Below are positions 4,302-53,086 of a DNA stretch of 64,000 nt, piece by piece. The stretch's first letter is position 1; the number at the start of each line of letters is the position of its first letter. The position numbers were made by a program, and so were the translations under genes. This stretch comes from a virus: the IMG/VR virus record IMGVR_UViG_3300029024_000001; one strand, 5' to 3'. The notes under the pieces were generated by a model. It made no database searches, was not told the origin of the DNA, and was given only the letters and a program-made list of their open reading frames with translations.

Positions 4302-6540
4302 ATCAGATTGGAAACCCTCAGAAAATATACTAAAATATTTGAAATCGTGGGAAAAGTTTGAGCCTGAATTATATGACGACAAGAAGGGGAATATAACAAT
4401 CGGGTACGGATTTCATCTTCCTCATCTTCTTAAAAAATACAAGAATGGTATAACAGTAGAAGAGGCCGATAAGGAATTTGAAGGTGTAGTTAATACGTTT
4501 GTTCCGGAATTTATACGAAGAACTCCTAATTTCAAAAATCTAAACAATAATCAGAGAGATGCTTTGTTTAGCTTGTTTTACAATACAGGAGGACCAGAGT
4601 ATTCTAAAAGCCCGATGCTTTTCAAATACCTTAAAGAAGGTGATTATGATAAGGCGGTGAAAGAAATAAATCACAATGAAAACGAGAAAGGTATGGGCGG
4701 CCAGAAGAAGCGCCGTGCCTTCGAGCGCCGGGTGTTCTCTACGCCGACAGACCAGCCCTGGACGGTGGATGATGACAGTAACTATGTCCTGATTGAAGAC
4801 AAGCCTGTAGAGAACGAATCTATAGAAAAAGATACTAATGATTCAAAGTATGAAGACGCTCGTCATGTAGCCGCAAAATACGGTGATACAGGTTATGTAG
4901 GTAGAGGATATGACGGAGATAAGGTCAGGGTGTCTGATTCGAATATAAAATCAGTTGGTATATCCAATAACGCTGATCCTGATAAGTGGTATGAATCCGT
5001 TAATCCAATATTAGACACTGATCCTATTAGTTTAATAGCCGATTTTATTCCTACTGTGAAACGAATGTTGGATCCTAATAGGGAGCGATCAGGGGAAGAT
5101 ACAGCCACAGATTTTGAAGAAAAAATGTGGAAGGCTTACACTGATGGAGATATAAGTAGATTACCGGCGAGCAAGTATCGTTTTGATGACGATGATGATG
5201 ATGCTCAGTATGTAGGATTGCCTCAAGAACAAGCTATTTTGATACAATCTTTATTAGATAAAGAGTATATGAACAACATGCTTGATGAGGCATATAAGGA
5301 CGCTGATGAAAAAAGTAAACGAAAAATAAGAGATTATAAGAAGGTCCTTGATAAACTAAATAAAAATATATTTGAAAATCCAGGAAAATGGATTTTAGTA
5401 AATGAAGGTGTAAGTCCATTTAGAGAAGAGGTATATGGTGACAATTTTGAAAAAGTAAACGAAGCTTCCGGATTAGGTGCGTTGAAGAATTTCAGTGTAA
5501 GATGGGATCCGGATGCTGGTATGTTGGATGTGAAGGATGATTATGATTTTAGCCGAAAAAAGATAGCGGAAGACATCATACCGGAAAGGGATGTTCCTCT
5601 TAGAATAAGGGAACGCATCAAATACGATCCTAAGAAAGGTAGTGTTCTTCGAAATAATGACAAGGCTTTACCTAAAAGGTTTGTAAGGAAATACGAAGAA
5701 GGTGGTGTTGTAAATAAACAACGTGAAGCATACGAATACTTTACTAATAAGCGCGGCATGTCCAAGATACAGGCGCTTGCTATCATAGGTAATCTCATGG
5801 CTGAATCCGGTCTTAAAGATGACATATACGGAGACAACAGAACATCATACGGCATACAGCAATGGCATAATGAGCGTATGGATAAGCTATTCAAGCACGC
5901 CAAAAAGAAAGGTCATTCTACACCAACATTCAAAGACCAACTTGAGTTTTTAGCTGATGAATACGAAGGGAAAACCGGATATTCTAATTTCTTATACACA
6001 AGAAAAGGAAAAGAAGGACCAGGGTATTACAACTACAGCCGGCAGGACTTTATGAACGCCGATAACCTGAAAGATGCTGTAGTAGCTTGGAACCAAGGAG
6101 CAGGACGTCCTCATAAGAGTGTTATAAGAAACGATGACCGTTATAATTATGCTATGGAGGTTGCTAAAAATCTTGGTTTGGAAATTGAAGAAAATTCCGT
6201 ATCTTCGTATGGTCAAATGGGATTCGGAGATGATGCTGAAATAGCAGCATCGGTAACACTTCCAGAGGTAGAAGTGGCAGCCGCCCTTCCTAACCCGGAA
6301 GTCCCGTCCCAGGAGAGACAGTCCGAGGAAGAGAGATTCCGTACATGGACTGAAACGTATGGTAAGGACATCATAAATCATTTACTGACGTTAGACGGGA
6401 AAAAGGATGGTGATGACAGTGATTACAGCATGATGTATAAACAGCATGAAAAAGAAAGCGAAGAGGATAAGAAAATGGCTTTGATTAATGCCGTGCTTCC
6501 CAATATTCAGCTTCGCATTAAAGGCGTCACCGATAATTAG
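4285..6540 (+). CDS. Virion-associated peptidoglycan hydrolase with two lytic domains: an N-terminal GH24 lysozyme-like domain and a tail-tip-lysozyme-like domain
   Basis: The N-terminus reads ITIGYGFH...QRDALFSLFYNTGG, which resembles the T4 lysozyme YTIGIGH...RRCALINMVFQMGETG. Residues around 490-620 read ALAIIGNLMAESGL...YGIQQWHNERMDKL...QLEFLADEYEG, which resembles the phage tail-tip lysozyme family. Confidence 0.65.
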   Translation: MAKKNKSDWKPSENILKYLKSWEKFEPELYDDKKGNITIGYGFHLPHLLKKYKNGITVEEADKEFEGVVNTFVPEFIRRTPNFKNLNNNQRDALFSLFYNTGGPEYSKSPMLFKYLKEGDYDKAVKEINHNENEKGMGGQKKRRAFERRVFSTPTDQPWTVDDDSNYVLIEDKPVENESIEKDTNDSKYEDARHVAAKYGDTGYVGRGYDGDKVRVSDSNIKSVGISNNADPDKWYESVNPILDTDPISLIADFIPTVKRMLDPNRERSGEDTATDFEEKMWKAYTDGDISRLPASKYRFDDDDDDAQYVGLPQEQAILIQSLLDKEYMNNMLDEAYKDADEKSKRKIRDYKKVLDKLNKNIFENPGKWILVNEGVSPFREEVYGDNFEKVNEASGLGALKNFSVRWDPDAGMLDVKDDYDFSRKKIAEDIIPERDVPLRIRERIKYDPKKGSVLRNNDKALPKRFVRKYEEGGVVNKQREAYEYFTNKRGMSKIQALAIIGNLMAESGLKDDIYGDNRTSYGIQQWHNERMDKLFKHAKKKGHSTPTFKDQLEFLADEYEGKTGYSNFLYTRKGKEGPGYYNYSRQDFMNADNLKDAVVAWNQGAGRPHKSVIRNDDRYNYAMEVAKNLGLEIEENSVSSYGQMGFGDDAEIAASVTLPEVEVAAALPNPEVPSQERQSEEERFRTWTETYGKDIINHLLTLDGKKDGDDSDYSMMYKQHEKESEEDKKMALINAVLPNIQLRIKGVTDN

Positions 6541-26606: not shown

Positions 26607-29600
26607 ATGACATCAACGTGTATTATTAAAAGAGATAATAAAAAGAAAGTTGTTTCTGTCTCTACCAGATCAGGGGACAGGTCTATGTTGTTTGATAAAA
26701 TAGCATCTGTTCCCCTTATGGAGAATAGGGAACGGGCTACTACTGTTTTTAAAACCGTATTTTCTAATAAGTTCTTAAAGGCTTTTGGTGACTGGAGAAA
26801 GAGGGTACCTATTAACAAACAGGCTTATAATAAGGTAAAATCCAATATCGACCTTATTCCGGAAGCCTATAGAGAAAGGGTGCTGGATAAGGCTTCTAAG
26901 ATGAGCAACCCTATTCTTGTGTCGAAATCAGATGCACCTTATGGGATTCAAGAATCAGGCTTTGGATTCTATAGCCAAGATCTGGGTGATAATATTATGT
27001 TGGTGGATGCTATGGTCCCGTCAGGTATTTCCGTACCGGAAGAACCGGGAATAGACGCCGGCCAGTATCTACAAGATGCTATATCTTCAGACTTCACTCC
27101 CGTATCTATGGTACAGGATAAGGGTGTTGATTATATGGTTATAAAAGACGGTCTTAAGATATTTAGCCCAGAAGAGCTACCAGAGGCAGATTCTAATCCT
27201 GTGGGTGTAACGTATCAGACTGGAGAGCCTCGTTTGTTTTTCATGAACGATCGTAATCAATTATTTGAAGATTACGGAGAAGCTCTTCGCTCTGGAGGGA
27301 ATGATATCAGAATAGGATTCTTATCTGGCACCGTTCAAGAATCTGCCTGGGATGGCGTGGCAGACATTACTTACAAGGCTGGAAAGTATGTTCTTAATAA
27401 TCCCAAGTCTTTTATACCGGTCATGACCGCTTCTGCTTCTACTTCTTTATCAACAAAAGGCGGTATAATTAACTACCTTATAAAGAAAGGTCTTTTGTCA
27501 GGATCCAAGATATTCAATCCGGAAACAAGAAGCTATTATCTTACAGGAGAAGGACATGCAGGACAAATTAGACTTTTCAATTCAGCCTTAGCTTATACCG
27601 AGCTCCGTAATCATTTTGGTTCCGATGTTTCCATGAACGACCAAGGTATGATAACCATAAGCTCGTTGGATAACAGTAAGGTAACTATGAGGCTCGCCAC
27701 CGGAGGAACGGAAAGGATTAGCAGGGAGCAGATAAAGAACGATCTTAAGTCAGGAAGATACAATGAATTGGACGCCAAGTACGATCATTTTGATGCGCTT
27801 GTAGTTTCATTCATATTAGAAGACAACGATCTTTATGCTGATACTAAAGCTAAGATCGTATCAGATTATAGCAGGCAGGAACGTGACCAACGAAATTCTA
27901 TTGTAGAGATACTGAAAACGCTTGGCGTTAGTGTCATAGGTATGACCGACTATATAGAGAAGTACCAAACCAAATACGGGCATGAACCTTCTGCTAAGGC
28001 ATTGGCGGATATTGCCAATAACGTAATAGCAGTTGGTGAAGATGCTACTTTATCTGATTTAGTAGAAGAAACAGCCCACTTCCTTGTAGAGGCATACAGA
28101 GATCAGAATGCTGTTGAGGCTGTTCTGCAAGATGTAGAAGGTACGGAAGAGTGGAACCAGTATGCAGGTCAGTATTATAATACATACGGTAAGGTATATG
28201 AAGGAGCTGAGCTTGATAATGCTGTTAGGAGAGAAATTCTTGGAAAGATCCTCGCCAGGGAGATGCAGACCGGCACAGCACAGGCGCCGGTAGAGCCCAC
28301 CTCCTTCCTGGGGCGCGTCCGGCAGCTTCTCTCTGGAATCGTAAGCTGGCTTAAATCAGCTTTATCTACTCAAAGACAAGATTTGAATAACGTTATTAAA
28401 AACATTCGTGATCTTGCCATTACTGACATAGATAAAGGATTTGATACCTCTCTGTTAAAGGATAATGACTTTACATTATACTCCCTTTCTTCTATGAACA
28501 AGAACAAGTTTCTTGAGTCTAAGATCCGGGCATTAAGAAAAACCTTAAGAGACTTGCGTCAGATAAGCTCTGATAGGGCTGTAACTACGTCTATGACCCT
28601 TGCTCAGCTTAAGACTATAGAAGATAAGATAAATAAGGTAGAGACCGAAATAGACAAGAATGAGATGGCGGCTGCCATGAATAGCATGATCTCTACAGCC
28701 GAAGCTCAGGTCAGATACTTAAGTAATGTGGTGAACGCCATCCTTCATGGTGATACCGAAGATGGTAAGCTTCACTTCAATACCAATGATCGAAAGAACG
28801 TAGATATTATCAACAATCAGGTTCTTCCGATCATGAACGATCTTCGAGGATATATCCGTAACAGAAGTACCGAATTTGATGAACGTGAAAAGCAGGATTA
28901 TACAAATAGGATCAATACCGTCATTGCCGACATCAATGGTATTCAGTCTGATATTAAATCAGTACAAGACCTTGATGAAAGTACGTTGCTTGATAAGTTA
29001 ATGAACGAACTTCATGTGCCGGCAGATAAGGTAAAGAGAGTAAAAGAATTTTTTGACAAGGTTCAACACGATGTTTCTTGGATAAGTAGGTGGTTCGGTA
29101 TATTAGAGCATTCTTCCAGTCCGTTCAATAACGCTCTTGGAGCTATGATTGCCAAAGACAATTACAATGCGATGGTGAATGCCCAGCCCGCCATATCCGA
29201 CTTCCTGGCATATGCTAAAAAGCATGGTTTTAACAAATCTGAATTTGAAAAACTGCTTCAGAAAGTAGACGGCAAAACTTCTAATTACCTTCGTAGTGCT
29301 CTTGATATGGCTAAATATGATCGTAATAAGAAGTTGGCACAGATGCGTGCGTTTGCTACTGCCATGAACATAGAAATATCAGAAGAAGAAATCAATGATG
29401 TGGTTGACAATAATCGTAATTACGTATTTAAAAGAGAAGTAGTTGACAAGGACGGAAATACGGTTACTGAAAACGCTAAATTTAAACCATCGTCTGACAG
29501 GGTTAATACCGATATTTTTACCATCGAGCAGGAAAAGATCTATACGGAGCAGATGGAAAAGTGGGATGCTGAAAATTCGGAACTGGAATTTAGTGAAAGT

Positions 29601-34734: not shown

Positions 34735-35477
34735 GATACTTCCTCCTTGTTTTTAGATTCTGCCTCTTCAAGTATGCTGATCACCTTATCAACAATATAC
34801 GAATCTGACATTTTCTCAATAAAAACATCCATTGCCTTAGTTATGTCATTGGCTTCTTTTTCTTCAAGAGCTATTTCTCCACCGGTAATAGCATCAGATA
34901 ATGATGTAGATAAGTGTCTTATCTTATCAATGCTCATAAACGTAAATGGATTACCACCCCATCCACCACCCATTTCTTTCATGATCTGATATCCACCTGA
35001 AATAAGTCTGCCTGATGTCGTGGCCAAGGAGGATACGATTAGGGACAGTACCGCCGCTTCCGTCCGCTCCTCGGACACGCCCCTCGACCACACGGCTGCC
35101 CTTATAGCGCCGGCCAGATCGTCTATGTATGGCATGAGGCAATCTTCCATAGCTTGTGTTATATCAGCTATAACCTCACTACGCTCTTTATTTATGTAGT
35201 AGATAGAAGCATTGTACCTCTTTATCTCTTTGTCCATATCATTTAAAAGACGCTTGATATTGTGCTTATACATAGGACTGGTTTTAATTACTTCCTTTAG
35301 CTTAAGAATGTAATTATAAGCCTGGTCATTTACGAACAACGTCATGGTCTCAACCGTTGAATGAAGTGTGTTAAGACTGTTAAGAATCTTATCGAAATTG
35401 TTTATCAAATAAGCTCTTCTGGCTTTTGCTGCGTAGTTAATGTTATTAAAATTATTCATTTTATTCATTAGATTCAA
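34731..35477 (-). CDS. Hypothetical protein of 248 aa. Its first 13 or so codons lie inside the right end of the TnpB element.
   Basis: The ORF is continuous from an ATG inside the conserved IS right-end sequence. It contains a sharp GC-rich island at 35035-35120. Confidence 0.5.
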   Translation of the reverse strand: MNLMNKMNNFNNINYAAKARRAYLINNFDKILNSLNTLHSTVETMTLFVNDQAYNYILKLKEVIKTSPMYKHNIKRLLNDMDKEIKRYNASIYYINKERSEVIADITQAMEDCLMPYIDDLAGAIRAAVWSRGVSEERTEAAVLSLIVSSLATTSGRLISGGYQIMKEMGGGWGGNPFTFMSIDKIRHLSTSLSDAITGGEIALEEKEANDITKAMDVFIEKMSDSYIVDKVISILEEAESKNKEEVS

Positions 35478-35620
35478 CCTTATATCACAAAATATTTATT
35501 CTAACCGGATTAAACACAAATCCACTATCGATTATCTTTCCAATGAAAGAATCACCGACTACTTTTCTTGCTATTCCAATTGATCCATTAATATCTGCAT
35601 TGATCAGTTTTCCAATTGAA
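35422..35620 (-). ncRNA. Putative TnpB omega-RNA (right-end-derived RNA) of copy A: a scaffold overlapping the tnpB 3' end and right end, plus about 20 nt of flank as guide
   Basis: IS605 TnpB systems are known to encode the omega-RNA at the right end. The conserved 3' region is shared with copy B. The guide would be ATTAACTACGCAGCAAAAGC. Confidence 0.3.
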
Positions 35621-36676
35621 CTTTGAAACAATCCACGTTTCTTTCTTTTTCCTAAGTAGGATTCCTGTTTCTTTAGAGGTTCAAAAGCAAGATGGTCAAT
35701 CTTTGATGTGTAAGATTCCTCATGAGTAATTACCTCTATCCCTAAAAGATTTGCTTTGTAAACAATCTTATCAATCAATTTAGAATGAGGAATAGAAACA
35801 AAATGTTGGTTATTCCTTTTACCGATATTTATCTCGTTTTTCCATTCTTTGTTTAATCCAATGATGATTGTTCCTATATTGTTAGATTTACAAAAGTCTA
35901 CAATGTATCTACTGATTTTATGCAATTTGTCTTCTATCCAACAATTTCTAAACAAAGTAATTTTTCTTATTCTATTTGAAGTTCCCTTATTACCAACAAA
36001 AGACATCAACTTAGCTTTCTTCTTATTGTACCACTGATTTACTGATTTCATAACCCGTCCGTTTATAATGAAAGAATTAGTTTCTACATTACTAATACAT
36101 GAACATAAATTATTCAATCCTAAATCAATCGAAAGAAAATTGTCTTTGTTTAAACCAAGATCAGTTTCCTTTCTTTCATAAACTACCTCAAGCTACATAA
36201 CATGTAGCTTGAGGGATTATTCTAACTTGTTTTAGTTCGTCTTTCTTTACATTTGTTTTGATAGGTTTGATTATATCTTTAACAAAATAAATACAATTAT
36301 CACCCTTTACCCTACAATTGCAGTTGGTGAAAACAACCATGTTTTGTTTCTTGCCCTTCTTATACGAAGGAAGATGAGGACGATGATTACCGTATTTCGA
36401 AGGATTCTTTTCAAAATCTTTCTTTAATCTCATCCAGGATTTTATGTTTTTAAATACCTGTTTAATCACCTGCTGTGAAACATGATTAGGTAAATTCCTG
36501 AAATCAAATTGGTTTTCTTTGCAAAGTTTGTTTGATAAATCAAATTCCTTTAAATAGTTACCTGAAAAGATTCCTTGACGAATGTTGTAAAGAACATAAT
36601 TATATAACAAGCCGGATTTGAAGCAAATATCCTCAAACCGGTTGTCTTTAACTATATGCCTTTCAACTAATCTCAT
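35485..36676 (-). pseudogene. tnpB: tnpB pseudogene. Fragments 36188-36676 and 35485-36117 are separated by a +1 frameshift.
   Basis: The two ORFs align to the N- and C-terminal halves of the intact copy at 47969-49162, with about 80% amino-acid identity. The RuvC motifs SIDLGLNN, EESYTSK and NADINGSIGI are retained. Confidence 0.7.
36186..36214. repeat. Perfect 13-bp inverted repeat cctcaagctacat / atgtagcttgagg with a 3-nt spacer, located at the tnpB frameshift point
   Basis: It is an exact palindrome. The homologous site in copy B is only a quasi-palindrome, ccacat..attgtgg. Confidence 0.8.
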
Positions 36677-36729
36677 TTGAATGATTTATATCGTAAATGT
36701 AATCGTTATTTGTAAAATAATCAAATTAT

Positions 36730-37272
36730 TCAATCATCGTATTCAAATTTTAGATTTTCAAGTTCATGTATTTGTAACCTAAGAGACTTAATTAAATTCG
36801 TTCTCTGTTCCTCTGCATGTTTTAAAGCCTCTTCCTTGCTTTCAAAAGCACAATCCCCTATCTGATAAGGGGTGTAACGACCAGGAGTGTCGGCTAATAA
36901 AAGACCACCACAATCTTCTATTCTGGCTTTTACCTTTCTTATTTTCCCATCTTTTAGACACATGTCTGTAACCCATACGAATTTACCATATAATTTATCA
37001 TACTCTTCTGATCTCTCTTCTTGCAATTCATACCATTTAAGCTTAGGAAATCTTAATGTGAATTTAACCTCAGTATCTTTTTCTAAGACATTAATATCGT
37101 ATGCTTCCGGCCACAGCTCTTTTATGCTGTCTTCGTCTTCGGCATACGCTACAAGTATGAATGAATCATCGGATTCACCACTACACCAATATGGATATTT
37201 TATAGGCCATTTGACTGGACGGTAGTCGTTACCGCAGTCGGATTTTTTAATGTAAAATCTTGCTCTAATCAT
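36730..37272 (-). CDS. Hypothetical protein of 180 aa
   Basis: ORF. Confidence 0.5.
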   Translation of the reverse strand: MIRARFYIKKSDCGNDYRPVKWPIKYPYWCSGESDDSFILVAYAEDEDSIKELWPEAYDINVLEKDTEVKFTLRFPKLKWYELQEERSEEYDKLYGKFVWVTDMCLKDGKIRKVKARIEDCGGLLLADTPGRYTPYQIGDCAFESKEEALKHAEEQRTNLIKSLRLQIHELENLKFEYDD

Positions 37273-37279
37273 ATCGTTA

Positions 37280-37591
37280 TTAATCTAATAATTTTTCTAT
37301 TTTAATTGATTTTGATGATAGATACATATTCCACGTTCCTCTGCCTCTATCACCTTTTTCGTTTTGTTTTTGGATTGTCAAGTACAGATCTCCGTCTTCA
37401 CATACTTCAACTTTTTTCAAGAAGCCTATCATTTCATCTCCTGCTTCGTGTAAAATACGGATCTTATCTCCTTCTTTTAACCCATAATTGGAATCAAAAT
37501 ATTCTTTTTTGATTCTATCAATATTGTCTTTATGGTTTTTTATAGCATAAAGCTCTTTTCTTAATAAATAATTTAGTTGTTCTATTGTCAT
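37280..37591 (-). CDS. Hypothetical protein of 103 aa
   Basis: ORF. Confidence 0.45.
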   Translation of the reverse strand: MTIEQLNYLLRKELYAIKNHKDNIDRIKKEYFDSNYGLKEGDKIRILHEAGDEMIGFLKKVEVCEDGDLYLTIQKQNEKGDRGRGTWNMYLSSKSIKIEKLLD

Positions 37592-38145
37592 TTCTTTTCC
37601 TCCTTATTTAATGGTATCAACCCTTTTCCATGCTTGTCATACCACAGCATAGCTATGCAGTTCCATGCACATTGTGCAAGATGAAAACATCCTGTATCGG
37701 AATCCACTCTTTCCCCTTTCATGTATTCCATCAGGTGTCGAAACATCGCAGCACGGTACCGTTCAAATCCGTTGTCAAGGTTCTGCCAAGTATTAGGATC
37801 GTACTTTTTGGCTCCGGCATGATAGACTTTTACAATGTCCTCAATCTCTTCCATTGGAAGCAAATCCCATCGTAGTTTATCATCAATGATGTCATTTTTC
37901 ACCGATTTGTTTTCTATGGGGTCTTTGGTAAGAATAATATCCATAATATCCGTTTCTATGACGAACGTCTCCCCATTGCAACAAACCTCAGCATATTTAT
38001 CATTTACTTCTATGTCTGATACTGCCTCCGCTATAGCTCCTTTGACGATTTTAAATTCGGCACTGATTATATCATCTTTTAATATGCGAAAAATAGATCC
38101 TTTTGGATAAAGGATATTTTTAGTATTATCATCCATCTTTTCCAT
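37588..38145 (-). CDS. Protein with a C-terminal domain resembling the phage dATP/dGTP diphosphohydrolase domain, a likely nucleotide pyrophosphohydrolase
   Basis: RWDLLPMEEIEDIVKVYHAGAKKYDPNTWQN...RYRAAMFRHLMEY...DSDTGCFHLAQCAWNCIAMLWY matches my memory of that family, with a KY..NW motif, RH, and E.G..HLA. Confidence 0.4.
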   Translation of the reverse strand: MEKMDDNTKNILYPKGSIFRILKDDIISAEFKIVKGAIAEAVSDIEVNDKYAEVCCNGETFVIETDIMDIILTKDPIENKSVKNDIIDDKLRWDLLPMEEIEDIVKVYHAGAKKYDPNTWQNLDNGFERYRAAMFRHLMEYMKGERVDSDTGCFHLAQCAWNCIAMLWYDKHGKGLIPLNKEEKK

Positions 38146-43963: not shown

Positions 43964-45637
43964 TTATTTTTTGTCATCTCCCTTTAACTTCTTTAAAGTA
44001 TCTGCAATCGGAAGCTGATCAATGACTCCCAATGCCGGAGCGACGGTCTTGACAACATTGTTAAGGAAATTACCGGTACTGTTCTGACCGCCGTCAAATA
44101 CCGTGATATTTCCGAGGTTAATGTGCTCAAATGCCTTAACCTGTTCTCCGGCAATTTCTTTCCACTGATTAACCATCTTGTACTGGATGGCGATCTGAGG
44201 ATTGGATTCTGCTGCTTCCACCATAGCCTTAAATCCGTCGGCTTCTGCCATCAACGATTTTTTCTTACCTTCGGCTTCTGCCTCCAGCTTCATCTGAATA
44301 GCTTTTGCCTCCGCCTCAGCTTTTGCCAAATGTGCTGCTGCCTCTGCCTCAGCATCAGCTTGCAAGATAGCCTCTTCCTTCTGGGTTTCAGCCGGCACAA
44401 TCTTTTCAGCCTTAAGCGCAGCCTGAACTTTCTTAGCCTTAGCTTCTTCCACTTCTTTATCAGCAAGTTCTTTTGCCGTTTTTACAGCCGCTTCCGATTT
44501 AACTTTTTCTTCTCCGGCCTTCTTCTCTGATTGAGCTTTGATGATCTGTAATTCTGATACCGATACAGCAACCTCCTTCTGGGCATTGTTGTATCCTATA
44601 GACGCATTTTTCTCAGCCTCAGCCTTCTTAATCTGAGCTTCAGAGTCTTGTATTGCTATAGCTGCTTCCTTGTCAGCTTCAGCCTTATTCTTCCCAACTT
44701 CTTCCATTCTTTCGGCTTCAGCTTTGTTTACTTCAAGTTCTGCCTTAGATCTTACAATCGCCGATTCCTTGTCGGTTAAAGTTTTTGCGATAACCGCAGC
44801 CCTGTCTCTATCTGCTTGAGCTACGCCGATCTGTTTCTCTTTATCGGTTAAAGCCAAGGCTATTTCTTTTTCTTTCTTCGTTTCAGCTACTATCGTTTCC
44901 TTTTCTTTTTCAGTACAAGCAATTTGAATCTCTTGTTCTTTTTTGGTATTAGCCACAGCCGTTTCTTTCTCCTTCTGCTGTACAGCAATCTTAATAGCAC
45001 CCAGCTTCTCCTGTTCTTCGATATTAGCCTGTGCTTCGTTCAGGGCCTTACTTTCAGCTTCTTTGCCAAGATTCATGATATAGCCGGCTTCGTCTCTGAT
45101 GTCACTGATGTTGATATTTAGGAGGTAAAGGCCTAACTTATTAAGTTCGTTATCAATGTTTTTTCTTGCCTTATCCAAAAACTCATCCCTGTCAGAATTA
45201 AGTTTTTCAATCGTCATTTCAGCAATGATCAAACGCATTTGGCCATAAACAATATCCGTAATAAGATTTTCAGTAGATTCAGTATCCATCCCCAAAAGCC
45301 TTTCTGCTGCATTCTGCATAATTTCAGGATTTGTGCTGATTGCTACTGTAATAGTAGTAGGTACATCCACTCTGATATTTTGAGACGACAAAGCACCGGT
45401 GAGCCTACAATCTATTTGCATAGGCTCCATAGACAAAATATCATAGCTTTGAATAATAGGCAAGACGAATGCCGCTCCACCATGATATAATTTTGCCGAC
45501 TTCTTTTCCCCACCTGTCTTACCATAAACGACCAAGACCTGATTAGGCTTACATCTACGATACCTTGATAAGACTCCGATGATTGTTAAAATAATCACTA
45601 CAGCTAAGATAGCTGACACGTACATGATTGTTGTCAT
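43964..45637 (-). CDS. SPFH/band-7, flotillin-like membrane protein
   Basis: It has an N-terminal transmembrane helix, an SPFH-type core and a long Ala/Glu/Lys-rich coiled coil, as in FloT/YqiK. Confidence 0.65.
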   Translation of the reverse strand: MTTIMYVSAILAVVIILTIIGVLSRYRRCKPNQVLVVYGKTGGEKKSAKLYHGGAAFVLPIIQSYDILSMEPMQIDCRLTGALSSQNIRVDVPTTITVAISTNPEIMQNAAERLLGMDTESTENLITDIVYGQMRLIIAEMTIEKLNSDRDEFLDKARKNIDNELNKLGLYLLNINISDIRDEAGYIMNLGKEAESKALNEAQANIEEQEKLGAIKIAVQQKEKETAVANTKKEQEIQIACTEKEKETIVAETKKEKEIALALTDKEKQIGVAQADRDRAAVIAKTLTDKESAIVRSKAELEVNKAEAERMEEVGKNKAEADKEAAIAIQDSEAQIKKAEAEKNASIGYNNAQKEVAVSVSELQIIKAQSEKKAGEEKVKSEAAVKTAKELADKEVEEAKAKKVQAALKAEKIVPAETQKEEAILQADAEAEAAAHLAKAEAEAKAIQMKLEAEAEGKKKSLMAEADGFKAMVEAAESNPQIAIQYKMVNQWKEIAGEQVKAFEHINLGNITVFDGGQNSTGNFLNNVVKTVAPALGVIDQLPIADTLKKLKGDDKK

Positions 45638-45670
45638 AACTTTTAAAATTTAACTGTTGATAAAAAAAAA

Positions 45671-46165
45671 TTAGATACTTAATTCTCCTTCTTCATATTT
45701 TATATTCGCCTTGTCGCCGTTTTTGTAGGTTTTTCCAGACAAGCATCTTACTCTCATTTGCTCCTGTCTTCCATTTTTCGAAATATTTACCATATAATGG
45801 TTCTTCCCTGATCTAAATACTATCTCCACCTCTCTGCCATTCAAATCTTCCGGACATTCGTACACCATTTCTTGCTTTAACTTAAGAAGTAACTTATATA
45901 CGTAAAACAAAACGATAAAGAAAAACGACCCTATCACAACCCCTACTAAATGGGAACCCGAAAAGTAAGTAGTCCAGCTATATCCAAGAATGAAATGTGT
46001 TATGCCCTTGAATGATATGATGTCCGACAAAGACATGCTTAAATCAGAAGCACTGTCAATGTCAATATCCGTATCCAGATCAGATCCTAATATCGACAAC
46101 AAAAACTGTATAACAAAAGCAAATGACGCTATTAAAGCCATGCATAAAATTATATCACTTCCCAT
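45671..46165 (-). CDS. NfeD-like membrane protein, the usual partner of an SPFH protein
   Basis: It has three transmembrane helices and a small C-terminal beta-rich domain. It lies immediately upstream of the SPFH gene, in the same arrangement as yuaF-floT and yqiJ-yqiK. Confidence 0.5.
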   Translation of the reverse strand: MGSDIILCMALIASFAFVIQFLLSILGSDLDTDIDIDSASDLSMSLSDIISFKGITHFILGYSWTTYFSGSHLVGVVIGSFFFIVLFYVYKLLLKLKQEMVYECPEDLNGREVEIVFRSGKNHYMVNISKNGRQEQMRVRCLSGKTYKNGDKANIKYEEGELSI

Positions 46166-46406
46166 ATCCTTCTGTTATTATTTTGTAAACAAGATCAGTC
46201 ATATCTTTGATGGTCTCCATATCATAATCAATAATAACAATATTGAATTTTTGTTCCACCATCATTTCAAGTTCAATTTGATCAAGAGAATCTAATCCAA
46301 GTTCTTTAAACGTCACATCTTCTTCATGAACTATATCCATTTCTGAATTAAGAAACTGAGTAATAATTATATCCTCTATTATCTTTCTGATTCTTACTTT
46401 TTCCAT
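46155..46406 (-). CDS. acpP: Acyl carrier protein
   Basis: It is 83 aa. LGLDSLDQIELEMMVEQKF matches the E. coli ACP segment LGADSLDTVELVMALEEEF, including the phosphopantetheine-attachment Ser in DSL. Confidence 0.8.
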   Translation of the reverse strand: MEKVRIRKIIEDIIITQFLNSEMDIVHEEDVTFKELGLDSLDQIELEMMVEQKFNIVIIDYDMETIKDMTDLVYKIITEGYGK

Positions 46407-47322: not shown

Positions 47323-47925
47323 TTAACTGTTGTACCCTTCTTTAATAATCGAATTTCTACCGGTAGATACCGACTGGCGAAGATCGTCATGTACAGAATC
47401 TACCGTAGAATACTTGTTTCTGGTTGTAAAAATCACTTCCAGCATCTCCTTATAATCACCTAAAGCTACTTCATATCTCGGATCTACTTTGGCTTTTCTT
47501 TCAGCTTCGGCATTACTCTTAGCCAGCTCCCGGTCAAGAAGATCTTCTTTGATTCGATCAGCAATCATATCAAGCTCTTTTTTGATTACTTCGCCAGCTG
47601 CCCGAAGTTGACCTTCTACATCACCAAGCTGGTCTTGGATAGTTCCTATTTCTTTCTTTAAACGATCATATTCGTTAATCATACCCATATCACCTGCATA
47701 GCCGGAAAAGTCCTTGATTATTCTGGTTCCTTCTTTAAGGAGCTCAATGACTCGTCTTTTACGTTCTCTGCTTATTAAAGACGGAAGACGATAATTCATA
47801 TCCGCTACCGCCTTGTCATGTATGGAGTTGATTAAAAACATCTCTCTCTCATCCCCTGCAAACTCCGTAAGAACCAAAAGGAACTTACTTATCAGGTATT
47901 CGTTTTCTTCTACTGTAAGTCTCAC
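47323..47925 (-). CDS. Hypothetical coiled-coil protein. It has a GTG start abutting the TnpB right end.
   Basis: ORF. Confidence 0.45.
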   Translation of the reverse strand: MRLTVEENEYLISKFLLVLTEFAGDEREMFLINSIHDKAVADMNYRLPSLISRERKRRVIELLKEGTRIIKDFSGYAGDMGMINEYDRLKKEIGTIQDQLGDVEGQLRAAGEVIKKELDMIADRIKEDLLDRELAKSNAEAERKAKVDPRYEVALGDYKEMLEVIFTTRNKYSTVDSVHDDLRQSVSTGRNSIIKEGYNS

Positions 47926-48110
47926 GTTATTAAAATTTTAAATTTTATTCATTAAATTCACATCTATATTACAAAATGTTTACTCTAATCGGGTTAAACG
48001 CAAACCCACTATCGATTATCATGTTTACAAATGAATCACCGAATACTTTTCTACCTATCCCAATAGCTCCATTGATATCCGCATTTAACAACTTTCCAAC
48101 TGAGCTTTGG
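47906..48110 (-). ncRNA. Putative TnpB omega-RNA of copy B
   Basis: Inferred from IS605 TnpB biology and the conserved right-end region. The guide would be GTGAGACTTACAGTAGAAGA. Confidence 0.3.
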
Positions 48111-49200
48111 AATAATCCACGTTTCTTTCTTTTGCCTAAGTAAACATCATGCTTCCCTAATTTCTCAAAAGCTAAATGATCAACCTTTGATGTATAGGAT
48201 TCTTCATTAATTTGAAAGCTGATACCTACCAACTTACATTTATAGGATATTTTGTCTATAAGTCTTGAAAAAGGTATTTCAACAAACTTTTGATTAATCT
48301 TCTTTCCAAGATTAATCTTTTGTTTCCATCCTTTATTTAAACCTATTACGATACTACCAATGTTGTTAGTAATACAATAATTGACAATATATCGACTAAC
48401 CTTGTGGATGTAGTCTTCTATCCAAAAATTCCTATAATTATTTAGCTGTCTAAGTCTTTCAGAAGTACCCTTACCTCCAACATAAGACATTAACTTAGCT
48501 TTCCTCTTATTGTACCACTGATTAAAAGATTTCATAATCCGCCCGTTTACAATGAAAGGAACCAATCCGGCATTGCTGATACATGAACATAAATTATTCA
48601 ATCCTAAATCAATCGAAAGAACATTATCCTTATCAAGACTTAGATTATGTTCTTTCTTTTCATAAATTACTTCAACCACATAGCATGTAGATTGTGGAAT
48701 GATTCTAACCTGACATAATTTACTATCTCCTATTTCAGTTTTAATTGGTTGAATTATATTTTTAACAAAATGAATACAACCATCCTTCTTTAGCCTACAA
48801 GCAGAAGTTGTGAACACAACCATGTTCTGTTTCTTGCCTTTCTTGTACGAAGGTAGATGAGGACAACAATTATCGTATTTGGAAGGATTGTTTTCAAAAT
48901 CCTTCTTGAGTCTAATCCATGATTTTATATTTTTAAAAACTTGGCCAACTACTTGTTGAGAAACAGAAGTGGGCAAATTCCTGGAATCAAATTGATTTTC
49001 TCTACAAAGTTTGGTTGAAAATTCATATTCATTCAGATATTCTTTATTGAAGATACCTTTACGCGCATTATACAAGACATAATTATATAGCAATCCTGAT
49101 TTGAGGCAAATATCTTCAAATCTGTTATCTTTAATAATATGTTTTTCAACCAATCTCATCAATCAATTTTACTATTTGAAATTTCAATTTTATTACCTTT
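47926..49200 (-). mobile_element. IS200/IS605-family TnpB-only element, copy B, intact. Boundaries are approximate.
   Basis: It holds an intact tnpB. The right-end core gttattaaaatt (47926-47937) is shared with copy A. The left end fits into the 38 nt after the DnaB-like gene's stop. Confidence 0.6.
47969..49162 (-). CDS. tnpB: TnpB, the OrfB_IS605 RuvC-like RNA-guided nuclease family
   Basis: It is 397 aa with RuvC-I SIDLGLNN, RuvC-II INEESYTSK and RuvC-III NADINGAIGI. Confidence 0.8.
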   Translation of the reverse strand: MMRLVEKHIIKDNRFEDICLKSGLLYNYVLYNARKGIFNKEYLNEYEFSTKLCRENQFDSRNLPTSVSQQVVGQVFKNIKSWIRLKKDFENNPSKYDNCCPHLPSYKKGKKQNMVVFTTSACRLKKDGCIHFVKNIIQPIKTEIGDSKLCQVRIIPQSTCYVVEVIYEKKEHNLSLDKDNVLSIDLGLNNLCSCISNAGLVPFIVNGRIMKSFNQWYNKRKAKLMSYVGGKGTSERLRQLNNYRNFWIEDYIHKVSRYIVNYCITNNIGSIVIGLNKGWKQKINLGKKINQKFVEIPFSRLIDKISYKCKLVGISFQINEESYTSKVDHLAFEKLGKHDVYLGKRKKRGLFQSSVGKLLNADINGAIGIGRKVFGDSFVNMIIDSGFAFNPIRVNIL

Positions 49201-50310
49201 TTAATATACTGACTGTTCTTGATTATCCGTAACGTCTTCCACAGTATAGAGCTTGGGCGGCGTCGGCGGCTGGTTGGGATTCACGAACTTCGTCCCTCCC
49301 TCCCCGTACATCCATCCATGCCCTGGCAGAATCTCTGGGTGGATTGTGTTAGTAAGCTCTTCCATGCTAACCTGCCTTACTTTCAGTATATGATGAAACA
49401 CCAGTCCGGCTGTTCTGAATGATGTTTTGTTTTCAGTTTTAAACCGATCAAGAGTCTGATACCAGTCTTTCCCAAATATCATATACTTATCCAGCCCGTA
49501 CCGACGAGGATTATGCAAACCTATCATTAACGTACATAACTGACCCAGTGTATCAGATTGGTAAAAATCAGAAAGACGCGGAGGCTGCTCTTGTGGACTT
49601 TTTATCCTTCCTTCTATCTCTCTGTTGAATTGGGATATGATGAGGAAAAATATGTTTTTATATACTAATTTAGCCTCATTTATAACCGCCACCAAATCAT
49701 CTATAGCCGACTTAGGATCTAATCCCATTCTTTTTATCAAAGCAATATGATCGACTTTAAATATTATAAGACGTTTGTCTTTATGTTTGGTAGCTATATG
49801 ATACACAGCCGCCTCAAACTCTTTTACCGTACACGGAGCATCGATGTATATTATATTATTTCTGATTTCACCTTGAAGGATTTCAAACATCCTCATCTCT
49901 TCTACTGTATTAGAATCTTGCCTTCTTAATATTTCAGGAGCTCGCTTTTTCATATCCTGGCTCATTCTGCGAAGAAGAAGATCTTGAGGATTCATTTCGA
50001 ACTCGCAATTAACAAGAAAATAATCTTCTGCTTGCGGGTTGATCATCGGATTCATAACATTTTCCAATATCTTTTGGGCCACATACGATTTACCTACAGA
50101 TGGCCGGGCCCCTATAGCAATAGCATGCTGAGGAAAAATACCTCCAAGCAAAGCCTCATCAATATAATCGTATCCTGTTTTAGCGGGGATAAGCTCTCCC
50201 CGCCTGTATTTCAAGATATTCTCATACGCCTCTTCCATAACCTGTTTAGAGGTCTTGAATATCCTTCTTATATCTATCCTATTTGCTATCTCCTCTTGCA
50301 TTTTTGTCAC
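49201..50310 (-). CDS. DnaB-family replicative helicase, RecA-like C-terminal domain
   Basis: It has Walker A AIGARPSVGKS, Walker B LIIFKVDHIAL, an H3 motif ISQFNRE and an Arg-finger-like HNPRRYG. Confidence 0.7.
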   Translation of the reverse strand: MTKMQEEIANRIDIRRIFKTSKQVMEEAYENILKYRRGELIPAKTGYDYIDEALLGGIFPQHAIAIGARPSVGKSYVAQKILENVMNPMINPQAEDYFLVNCEFEMNPQDLLLRRMSQDMKKRAPEILRRQDSNTVEEMRMFEILQGEIRNNIIYIDAPCTVKEFEAAVYHIATKHKDKRLIIFKVDHIALIKRMGLDPKSAIDDLVAVINEAKLVYKNIFFLIISQFNREIEGRIKSPQEQPPRLSDFYQSDTLGQLCTLMIGLHNPRRYGLDKYMIFGKDWYQTLDRFKTENKTSFRTAGLVFHHILKVRQVSMEELTNTIHPEILPGHGWMYGEGGTKFVNPNQPPTPPKLYTVEDVTDNQEQSVY

Positions 50311-52743: not shown

Positions 52744-53086
52744 TTTTAACTCCTCTCATCGCCTCTATGATTCTATCTGCTATAGTTATAGACCATGACA
52801 CCACATCTGGTACATATACTCCGCAATCTATTTCACCTTTTCTATTTTGTGCTTTAACAAACTCAATAGAATAAGCCTTGATAAGATCGAATCTACGTTG
52901 CTCCCAGTCTACATCTTTGTTTTCGTCATTTACAGGAAGGGTATCGAGATAAAAATTTAAACTCTCACTTATCACATTCCCATTATCACCATAGAACTGT
53001 ATTCTGTCATGGTCGCTTCTTGTAGTTGAGCTACTGAAAGTGATTACGTCTATTATCTCTCCTGTTCTTCTAATTTTTCTTTTCAT
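52736..53086 (-). CDS. Hypothetical protein of 116 aa
   Basis: ORF. Confidence 0.45.
   Translation of the reverse strand: MKRKIRRTGEIIDVITFSSSTTRSDHDRIQFYGDNGNVISESLNFYLDTLPVNDENKDVDWEQRRFDLIKAYSIEFVKAQNRKGEIDCGVYVPDVVSWSITIADRIIEAMRGVKNA

Follow-up and report, generated by a model that had tools for sequence, protein, structure and literature searches.

In bacterial chromosomes, TnpB and its guide RNA are known to serve in the maintenance of transposons. The viral DNA analysed here, IMG/VR record IMGVR_UViG_3300029024_000001 (64,000 nucleotides, referred to throughout as the window), carries two related TnpB elements, and this report is mainly concerned with the intact one, copy B, which lies at site B on the minus strand; the second, copy A, lies at site A. 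Judged from sequence comparisons, copy B is best explained as a transposase-less derivative of an IS607-family element of gut crAss-like phages. Alignment of occupied with empty alleles places the element precisely between the A and the TG of the next gene's start codon, and we consider it probable that this docked derivative encodes an RNA-guided homing nuclease at work between phages that infect the same cell. A full-text literature search found no published description of a start-codon-docked TnpB architecture; the paper on crAssE-Sib, the closest deposited phage, notes merely that TnpB genes occur in some Epsilonunovirus genomes (PMC11054128).

The closest described systems are the IS607 elements (Helicobacter pylori IS607, ISXfa1, ISFba1), whose serine recombinase performs crossover at a matching dinucleotide, usually GG (PMC10711439). 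The likeness lies in a helix-turn-helix (HTH)-plus-resolvase TnpA that overlaps tnpB in the autonomous relatives of copy B, in the lack of inverted repeats and of a target duplication, in the same dinucleotide (TG) at both junctions, and in an invariant base after the right end, which in ISXfa1 belongs to the RNA scaffold (PMC10711439). The differences are that the crossover dinucleotide here would be TG rather than the usual GG and that the motif ends in ATG, not in AGGAG, GAGGG or GGG (PMC11061315). In addition, ISFba1 has the canonical D194/E290/D371, whereas the family described here has an alternative glutamate and no zinc finger, its copies in the window have no TnpA, and the family is resident in phage genomes. 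No Rfam match to the IS607-type RAGATH-18 right-end RNA (reRNA) was obtained at E<=10, and a G-rich motif was not seen at the junctions, which read GATG or HATG (H being A, C or T). With the IS200/IS605 elements (ISDra2; IS1341-type), the family shares a scaffold encoded by the 3' end of tnpB and the right end, a guide that would be taken from flanking DNA, insertion 3' of a short motif without duplication, and the frequency of TnpB-only copies; it differs in that no Y1 HUH transposase was present in the relatives found, and its end hairpins are mostly no better than chance.

Outside the transposons, the free-standing Seg and Mob homing genes of T-even phages should spread in co-infections through cleavage of the allele that lacks the element (PMC13565253). 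Like them, the present elements are intergenic, follow the orientation of their neighbours and are patchily distributed among close relatives; unlike them, they would recognize the target through RNA, would tell self from non-self by an interrupted motif-plus-target, have defined transposon ends and replace a start codon. IStrons, in which a group I intron is combined with an IS605 or IS607 TnpB, likewise insert in a way that by design leaves host-gene expression intact, but do so by RNA splicing instead of by docking at a start codon at the DNA level; no Rfam match to a group I intron was found in the window, and the left end is merely 38-58 nucleotides (nt) long. The Fanzor2 and 'pro-Fanzor' TnpBs are IS607-associated and resemble copy B in a glutamate six residues before the first zinc-finger cysteine position (PMC10711439). 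They differ in having DPG rather than DLG at RuvC-I, in retaining the zinc-finger cysteines lost here, and in occurring in cyanobacteria or eukaryotes rather than in gut phages.

TnpB and predicted right-end RNA of copy B

Two features make up most of the element:

47969..49159, minus strand: tnpB of copy B, intact, 396 amino acids (aa) plus stop, with RuvC residues D184, E319/E320 and D361 and no CxxC zinc finger
47926..48143, minus strand: predicted omega-RNA (reRNA) scaffold of seven helices, comprising the last ~175 nt of the open reading frame (ORF) and a 43-nt non-coding tail (47968..47926)

The ORF at 47969..49162 (minus strand) encodes 397 aa when counted from a TTG and 396 aa when counted from the ATG at 49159. 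Its product matched the Pfam profiles OrfB_IS605 (PF01385; 1.5e-16, 61 bits, cut-off 30.5) and Cas12f1-like_TNB (PF07282; 1.3e-7, 32 bits, cut-off 26.3), the NCBIfam profile NF040570 (guided_TnpB, "RNA-guided endonuclease TnpB family"; 141 bits, cut-off 100) and PHROG 506. A preliminary description made from the letters alone had called it a TnpB with the RuvC motifs SIDLGLNN, INEESYTSK and NADINGAIGI; the Pfam and NCBIfam scores exceed the curated cut-offs, and all three motifs were found. Among 65 distinct family sequences, D184 and D361 are invariant and E319/E320 are invariant in 64-65. The position of the canonical RuvC-II glutamate is occupied by glycine in copy B (VIGLNKGW), and E319/E320 stand at an alternative position, E319 being six residues ahead of the first zinc-finger-cysteine position (E319...V326). 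No CxxC...CxxC zinc finger is present between RuvC-II and RuvC-III, residues 309-396 containing zero cysteines, and the H. pylori IS607 TnpB has likewise lost its zinc finger. The alternative-glutamate arrangement has been described for Fanzors and some TnpBs, and is catalytically active in Fanzors and related TnpBs (PMC10711439). A phmmer search of the PDB reached only Cas12f (3e-5) and did not reach the ISDra2 TnpB. Between family copies at different sites, the median ratio of nonsynonymous to synonymous substitution (dN/dS) was 0.08 (114 pairs), and the family TnpB is under strong purifying selection. By its sequence, copy B encodes a genuine, intact TnpB, a predicted RNA-guided nuclease.

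Relatives were collected by a peptide-pattern search, which returned 159 from viral contigs; 80 of these were fetched (79-100% identical, on contigs of 13-188 kb), and the ORF was intact at 394-396 aa in 77 of the 80 loci. The same patterns found no close cellular relative in 185,579 prokaryotic species represented by one genome each. The best cellular relatives of the copy-B TnpB are 35-42% identical, and a source of the element in a host genome was set aside as nothing closer turned up. A large protein database gave more than 7,000 clusters at E<=1e-10, of which the top 120 were at least 81% identical and came from contigs of up to 158 kb. The family is thus restricted to phage contigs.

Homology between copies A and B runs from the tnpB ATG through ...TTTTAATAAC, 43 nt past the stop codon, and then ends, in keeping with the common right-end core that had been noticed before. 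Across the family, the right end is conserved through the stop codon for 43 nt to ...TTTTA(A/G)T(A/G)AC-GTG, and the flanks beyond it are unrelated from site to site, as they are between the two copies; they would therefore be the guide portions. Identity at synonymous codons rises from ~0.65 elsewhere in the gene to 0.88 in its last 20 codons. RNAalifold applied to 28 family members gave seven helices with 41 pairs, in which 98% of cells pair and 11 pairs are compensatory, against 3.6+-1.3 in shuffled alignments (0/500) and 0-4 in slid controls. A covariance model (R1) built from this alignment matched, at the 3' end of tnpB, relatives with 39-48% protein identity: H. pylori IS607 (90.7 bits), a Bacteroides phage (76.6), another TnpB of crAssE-Sib (60.6) and an archaeal metagenome-assembled genome (MAG; 53.3). 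With these distant relatives added, 26 of the 41 pairs were compensatory against 10.6+-2.2 in shuffled alignments and 5-10 in slid controls, figures to be read with the caveats that this second alignment was fitted to the model and that part of the scaffold region is coding. Helices 4 and 5 have 97-100% of cells paired, and all their pairs vary. No Rfam family was matched in the whole window at gathering thresholds or in the right-end region at E<=10, so the scaffold corresponds to neither a catalogued omega-RNA nor RAGATH-18. A conserved RNA structure, supported by covariation, occupies the final ~220 nt of the element, and the omega-RNA previously suggested to overlap the 3' end of tnpB and the right end has in this covariance-model search found its support. 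One weak match elsewhere in the window (52943..53078, minus strand; 21 bits, E ~0.01) falls within an unrelated 116-aa ORF and is probably chance.

Insertion sites, lineage and junctions

The closest deposited phage, crAssE-Sib (OR575929.1), is an epsilon crAss-like phage of 151 kb whose flanks are 96-97% identical to those in the window and which is empty at both sites, lacking copy A and copy B. In IMG/VR, site B is occupied in 5/115 contigs (110 empty) and site A in 22/119 (97 empty); the L014 site is occupied in 12/116 contigs and the L011 site in 5/53. Because both sites are empty in crAssE-Sib and polymorphic in IMG/VR, the elements are not ancestral core genes, the alternative that the preliminary description had named as fatal to its proposal of two insertions. 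The polymorphism of both sites among close relatives likewise indicates recent mobility, as had been suggested. At site A, the occupied alleles comprise at least four right-flank and at least three left-flank haplotypes, each of which also exists empty, a pattern that counts in favour of horizontal spread. The window itself holds no additional right ends, left ends or guide targets (guide with up to two mismatches), the nearest guide matches having three or more mismatches, as expected by chance; this is the outcome of the search for further copies and targets that the preliminary description had proposed.

The same description had placed the elements in the IS605 family, a label that does not hold, as transposase-bearing relatives carry an IS607-type serine recombinase instead. 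In an H. pylori phage (40% identical) and in Bacteroidota MAGs (35%), an overlapping serine recombinase gene precedes tnpB, and the TnpB of the H. pylori phage IS607 is 40% identical to copy B over its full length. A tblastn search with these recombinases against all fetched phage DNA (4.2 Mb) located autonomous elements in phage contigs. At locus L291, a 194-aa TnpA (5187..5771; HTH_17 and Resolvase, 6.8e-20) overlaps a TnpB of 394 aa, which shares 67% identity with copy B, in an element with a right end of the copy-A type, and a wider scan found related TnpA in 46 phage loci. The TnpA gene is absent from both copies in the window. None of the relatives yielded a Y1 HUH transposase, and those found with a transposase all have a serine recombinase. 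Where an IS605 element would be expected to have DNA hairpins at its ends, the terminal hairpins are weak A/T ones (-2 to -6 kcal/mol), not significant and mostly no better than shuffled sequence. A more distant autonomous IS607 group was seen on IMG/VR phage contigs (L548, L552, L553, L555, L556, L558, L561 and L564), with TnpBs 39-40% identical to copy B, a shared right terminus ACTTTTAATAAC-GTG/GTA, and a left end that starts with ATAATAAC, repeating the AATAAC of the right end.

At site B, the junctions and the sequences adjoining them are as follows:

49160..49197, minus strand: eroded left-end remnant of copy B, GGTAATAAAATTGAAATTTCAAATAGTAAAATTGATTG, recognized by comparison with the empty site of crAssE-Sib, with L012 (same left-end subtype) and with the full 58-nt end
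47923..47925, minus strand: terminal GTG, the last conserved right-end triplet and the start codon of the downstream gene, with the proposed TG crossover dinucleotide inside it
47903..47922, minus strand: putative guide-encoding flank, AGACTTACAGTAGAAGAAAA, equal to codons 2-8 of the downstream gene; family conservation stops at 47923
47323..47925, minus strand: downstream gene, 200 aa, function unassigned, now beginning at the element's GTG

The orthologue of the 200-aa gene in crAssE-Sib starts with ATG AGA CTA ACA at the junction. All 15 independent sites of the copy-B family retain the terminal GTG, and at each of them it shares the reading frame of an ORF of 64 to >984 aa. Empty alleles were found for seven sites, and with one exception at the L014 site all have ATG at the junction position: site B in crAssE-Sib and 110 contigs, site A in crAssE-Sib and 97 contigs, the L010-type site (window 26607), the L052-type site (window 3882), the L018-type site (in L048), the L014 site in 103/104 empty alleles and the L011 site in 48 empty alleles. 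Insertion thus takes place at the TG of a start codon, for which the element brings a replacement. The preliminary description had the elements standing directly before the next gene, which is right as to their adjoining it, and missed the exact join at the start codon with a start codon of the element's own. Two positions of this kind are unoccupied in the window:

26607..26609, plus strand: unoccupied docking site, the ATG of a 2140-aa ORF, occupied by a family member in the related phage L010
3882..3884, plus strand: unoccupied docking site of the L052 type, an ATG overlapping the upstream stop (ATGA); 24 of the 80 related loci have an element at the orthologous, diverged position

With a caret marking each junction, the empty L014 site reads TTGACATG^GCAAGG and the occupied one TTGACATG^ATTGAAT...AATAACGTG^GCAAGG, with no duplication and no loss, and with a right junction of ...AACGTG^GCAAGG. 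The host ATG remains to the left of the element, where it is closed after two codons (ATG-ATT-GAA-TAA), and the GTG of the element takes over on the right. In general, X-ATG-Y becomes X-ATG-element-(G/A)TG-Y, the base before the terminal TG distinguishing the copy-B family (G) from the copy-A family (A). Recombination of the IS607 type at a matching dinucleotide would be expected to leave this arrangement, were the dinucleotide TG. Since the right end finishes in G plus TG, the downstream gene retains a start codon, GTG presumably being used for translation, and the A-rich right end takes the place of the gene's native leader. The exceptional empty allele at the L014 site, in the IMG/VR contig L170, reads TTGACGTG^GCAAGG with a GTG start in place of ATG; it could be the footprint of an element lost by AC microhomology, or a motif-resistant allele. 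A further pair of loci, L057 and L059, shares the left flank and the element, and L057 is without a 133-aa gene, the deletion beginning exactly behind the element's GTG and ending exactly behind the next gene's ATG. Such a deletion suggests either an event in which the right end was joined to an ATG (adjacent deletion) or strong selection for an in-frame fusion.

The left end is more variable. In full it is ~58 nt long, (A/G)TTGAATAAATT...AAGATATTAAA followed by the ATG of tnpB, and copy A has this version. Copy B has a remnant of 38 nt, in which the first bases of the family end are gone and an internal segment is deleted, and site B in the window has also lost the downstream gene's original ATG and ~11 nt upstream of it. 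The close packing against the preceding stop codons reported earlier is real (gaps of 38 nt for B and 53 nt for A), but the short end of copy B is eroded and not a compact functional end. Losses at microhomology junctions recur at the L010, L018 and L011 sites, and some copies, L039 among them, are devoid of a left end; the right end is retained in 80/80 related loci and in both window copies. At the L011 site, TTGAAA was rejected as the start of the left end, being flank: a loss at a microhomology has removed 18 nt of flanking sequence and ~12 nt of the left end from the occupied allele. A TAnnTTTG box in the left end resembles a promoter of the Bacteroidota type. In two other phage TnpBs of this clade, L089 (crAssE-Sib 64190..65413; 43% identical) and L088 (Bacteroides phage C3_41T2LP; 48% identical), such a box lies only 3-4 nt before the ATG, a spacing that suggests leaderless or near-leaderless transcripts, and copy B has TAAAATTG 4 nt ahead of its ATG.

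Copy A, the second element in the window, comprises the following:

35485..36676, minus strand: tnpB of copy A, a pseudogene by a single +1 frameshift after codon 162
36735..36737, minus strand: orphan ATG at the left junction, the downstream gene's original start, overlapping the end of the upstream gene
36677..36734, minus strand: full left end of 58 nt (ATTGAATAATTTG...CATTCAA), compared with crAssE-Sib and family ends
35442..35484, minus strand: right-end tail, ending ...AATAAC, with the terminal start triplet lost

The copy-A gene is otherwise open in both halves, with RuvC motifs intact, which bears out the contrast of one intact and one decaying copy. Its two halves are 74% and 69% identical to copy B (tblastn) and the DNA 75%, so that the figure of about 80% given in the preliminary description is too high. 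At site A, the empty crAssE-Sib allele reads GAATACG ATG ATT AAT TAC and the window GAATACG ATG^ATTGAATAA, the first bases of the left end recreating a TGA stop (36732..36730) for the upstream gene. Within the tail, two ATGs (35468 and 35459) share the reading frame of the downstream gene (34731..), and the covariance model matches at 35439..35681 with 224 bits. An intact 399-aa gene is present in 11 of the 16 occupied site-A contigs that could be checked. Copy A is thus the same kind of element, of a sister subfamily, recently inactivated by one frameshift. A parse of copy A with an AT crossover was dropped, as it made the left-end starts inconsistent between sites. Just upstream of site A, crAssE-Sib has a gene for a DNA cytosine-5 (C5) methyltransferase (~1.1 kb) that the window lacks (window 36730..37600 against L002 2749..3876), the flanks being otherwise 97-99% identical.

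Probable RNA-guided homing and its alternatives

The left junctions of the copy-A subfamily read GATG at 8/8 independent sites, and its right end reads CATG. At seven sites of the copy-B family, the ATG is preceded by C, T or A and in no case by G, and the right end of this family reads CGTG. A simple ATG motif destroyed by the GTG of the right end was dropped, given that the copy-A subfamily ends in ATG and has intact TnpB, and the comparison was therefore made over four bases (GATG with CATG, HATG with CGTG). On the homing reading, the complete recombinase-bearing elements in sister phages could mobilise the short copies in trans. Read-through transcription would yield an omega-RNA guided by the 16-20 nt that directly follow the start codon, and TnpB with this RNA would cut element-free alleles, which present a motif ending in ATG and the same codons, in a co-infecting phage. 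Recombinational repair would then copy the element in, as with the free-standing homing endonucleases of T4, and the occupied allele would escape because its right end is one base off the motif (CGTG for HATG; CATG for GATG).

Homing by copy B between co-infecting phages is, as stated above, what we regard as probable. We put forward more tentatively, as possible rather than probable, a wider reading in which a phage-restricted IS607 lineage uses the start codon as its docking site, through a TG crossover and its own G or A plus TG, can thereby stand before essential genes of a densely packed, lytic-type phage genome and leave them active, and acts as an RNA-guided gene drive between co-infecting crAss-like phages, with the first codons as guide and a single base (CGTG against HATG; CATG against GATG) separating self from non-self. 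Homing of this kind would be a natural case of TnpB machinery acting in virus populations, in a very abundant group of human-gut phages, and would offer a testable system for RNA-guided homing between phages. The start-for-start codon swap would explain how a 1.2-kb selfish element persists in a compact genome, and for the annotation of crAss-like phages it means that a gene which appears to begin with GTG right behind a "transposase" gene is an intact gene whose start codon was donated. Compact 396-aa zinc-finger-less TnpBs, maybe with a very short ATG-type motif, would also be of interest for genome editing.

Several observations weigh against homing and docking as set out here. The eroded left end of copy B makes its movement by a recombinase doubtful. 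Fusion to a long ORF is missing at about half the sites of the copy-A subfamily and at 4/8 right ends in the distant autonomous group. That group shares the TTTTAATAAC-GT(G/A) terminus, so the terminal triplet is old, and with so many unfused sites docking may reflect tolerated insertions at NATG and not a targeting of start codons. The target-adjacent motif is one that we infer only from the junctions. All 110 empty site-B alleles read AGACT[A/G]ACAG, which mismatches the guide at position 6, so that copy B may be unable to home into circulating alleles. At the L014 and L011 sites, many perfectly guide-matching empty alleles persist, and the drive would therefore be weak or co-infection rare. 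With glycine where RuvC-II canonically has its glutamate, and with the zinc finger missing, nuclease activity of the alternative-glutamate type is a prediction in this clade, and an AlphaFold2 model from a 27-sequence family alignment had a pLDDT of 45 and was unusable.

The position-6 mismatch corresponds to codon 3 of the downstream gene, which is CTT in 5/5 occupied genomes and CTA or CTG in 110/110 empty ones (loci L321 onwards), a split that either simple linkage or the survival of only resistant alleles as empty could produce. Target sequences that bear on this mismatch are AGACTTACAG, AGACTAACAG and AGACTGACAG.

Among the alternatives, the one that survives best, though we think it unlikely, is that TnpB serves the phage as a weapon, cutting the essential-gene starts of element-free competitors (marker exclusion) to the benefit of the carrier, with copying as a by-product. 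Strong purifying selection in phages, the confinement of the family to phage contigs, guides lying in the 5' ends of replication and structural genes, and left ends that are often eroded beside a right end and RNA that are always retained would all suit such a role, and these data are inseparable from homing. A weapon is, however, harder to reconcile with per-site occupancies of only 4-18%, with the decay of copies (copy A, and 5/16 relatives at site A) and with a copy-B guide that mismatches every sampled empty allele.

It is less likely still that the elements are passive passengers, that is, IS607 insertions moved by the serine recombinase alone, for which start codons are the only tolerated NTG-ending spot and TnpB merely restores the element after excision. 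Such passengers could account for the autonomous TnpA-bearing copies in sister phages, for some insertions of related subfamilies away from gene starts, and for a TTTTAATAAC-GTG terminus that is ancient, older than the copy-B family; but TnpB-only copies with eroded left ends still have a dN/dS of ~0.08 and keep their catalytic residues invariant, conservation extends to the RNA scaffold, and the site-A element is found on several flank haplotypes. A TldR-like RNA-guided regulator, binding DNA or RNA at the start of the downstream gene and controlling its expression without cutting, seems to us very improbable, for although the protein has neither the canonical RuvC-II glutamate (VIGLNKGW) nor a zinc finger, and guide and scaffold overlap the next gene's start codon, D184, E319/E320 and D361 are invariant at a dN/dS of ~0.08 with no TldR-type loss of catalytic residues seen, the alternative-glutamate arrangement is active in Fanzors and related TnpBs (PMC10711439) and is shared by the transposon-borne H. 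pylori IS607 TnpB, and there is no second guide target in the window.

Neighbouring genes of copy B

The 200-aa product encoded downstream of copy B had no match in Pfam, NCBIfam or PHROG. The gene on the other side is the following:

49201..50310, minus strand: upstream gene for a DnaB-like replicative helicase, with its stop codon TAA at 49203..49201

The helicase assignment comes from matches to Pfam DnaB_C (1.1e-16) and PHROG 37407 (1.5e-40) and from an orthologue annotated in crAssE-Sib. A primase-like gene lies farther upstream, and the replication-block setting proposed for copy B is upheld by these two genes. A flotillin-like protein (557 aa) and an acyl-carrier-protein-like ORF are encoded at 43964..46406, as annotated in crAssE-Sib, an unusual cargo beside replication genes.

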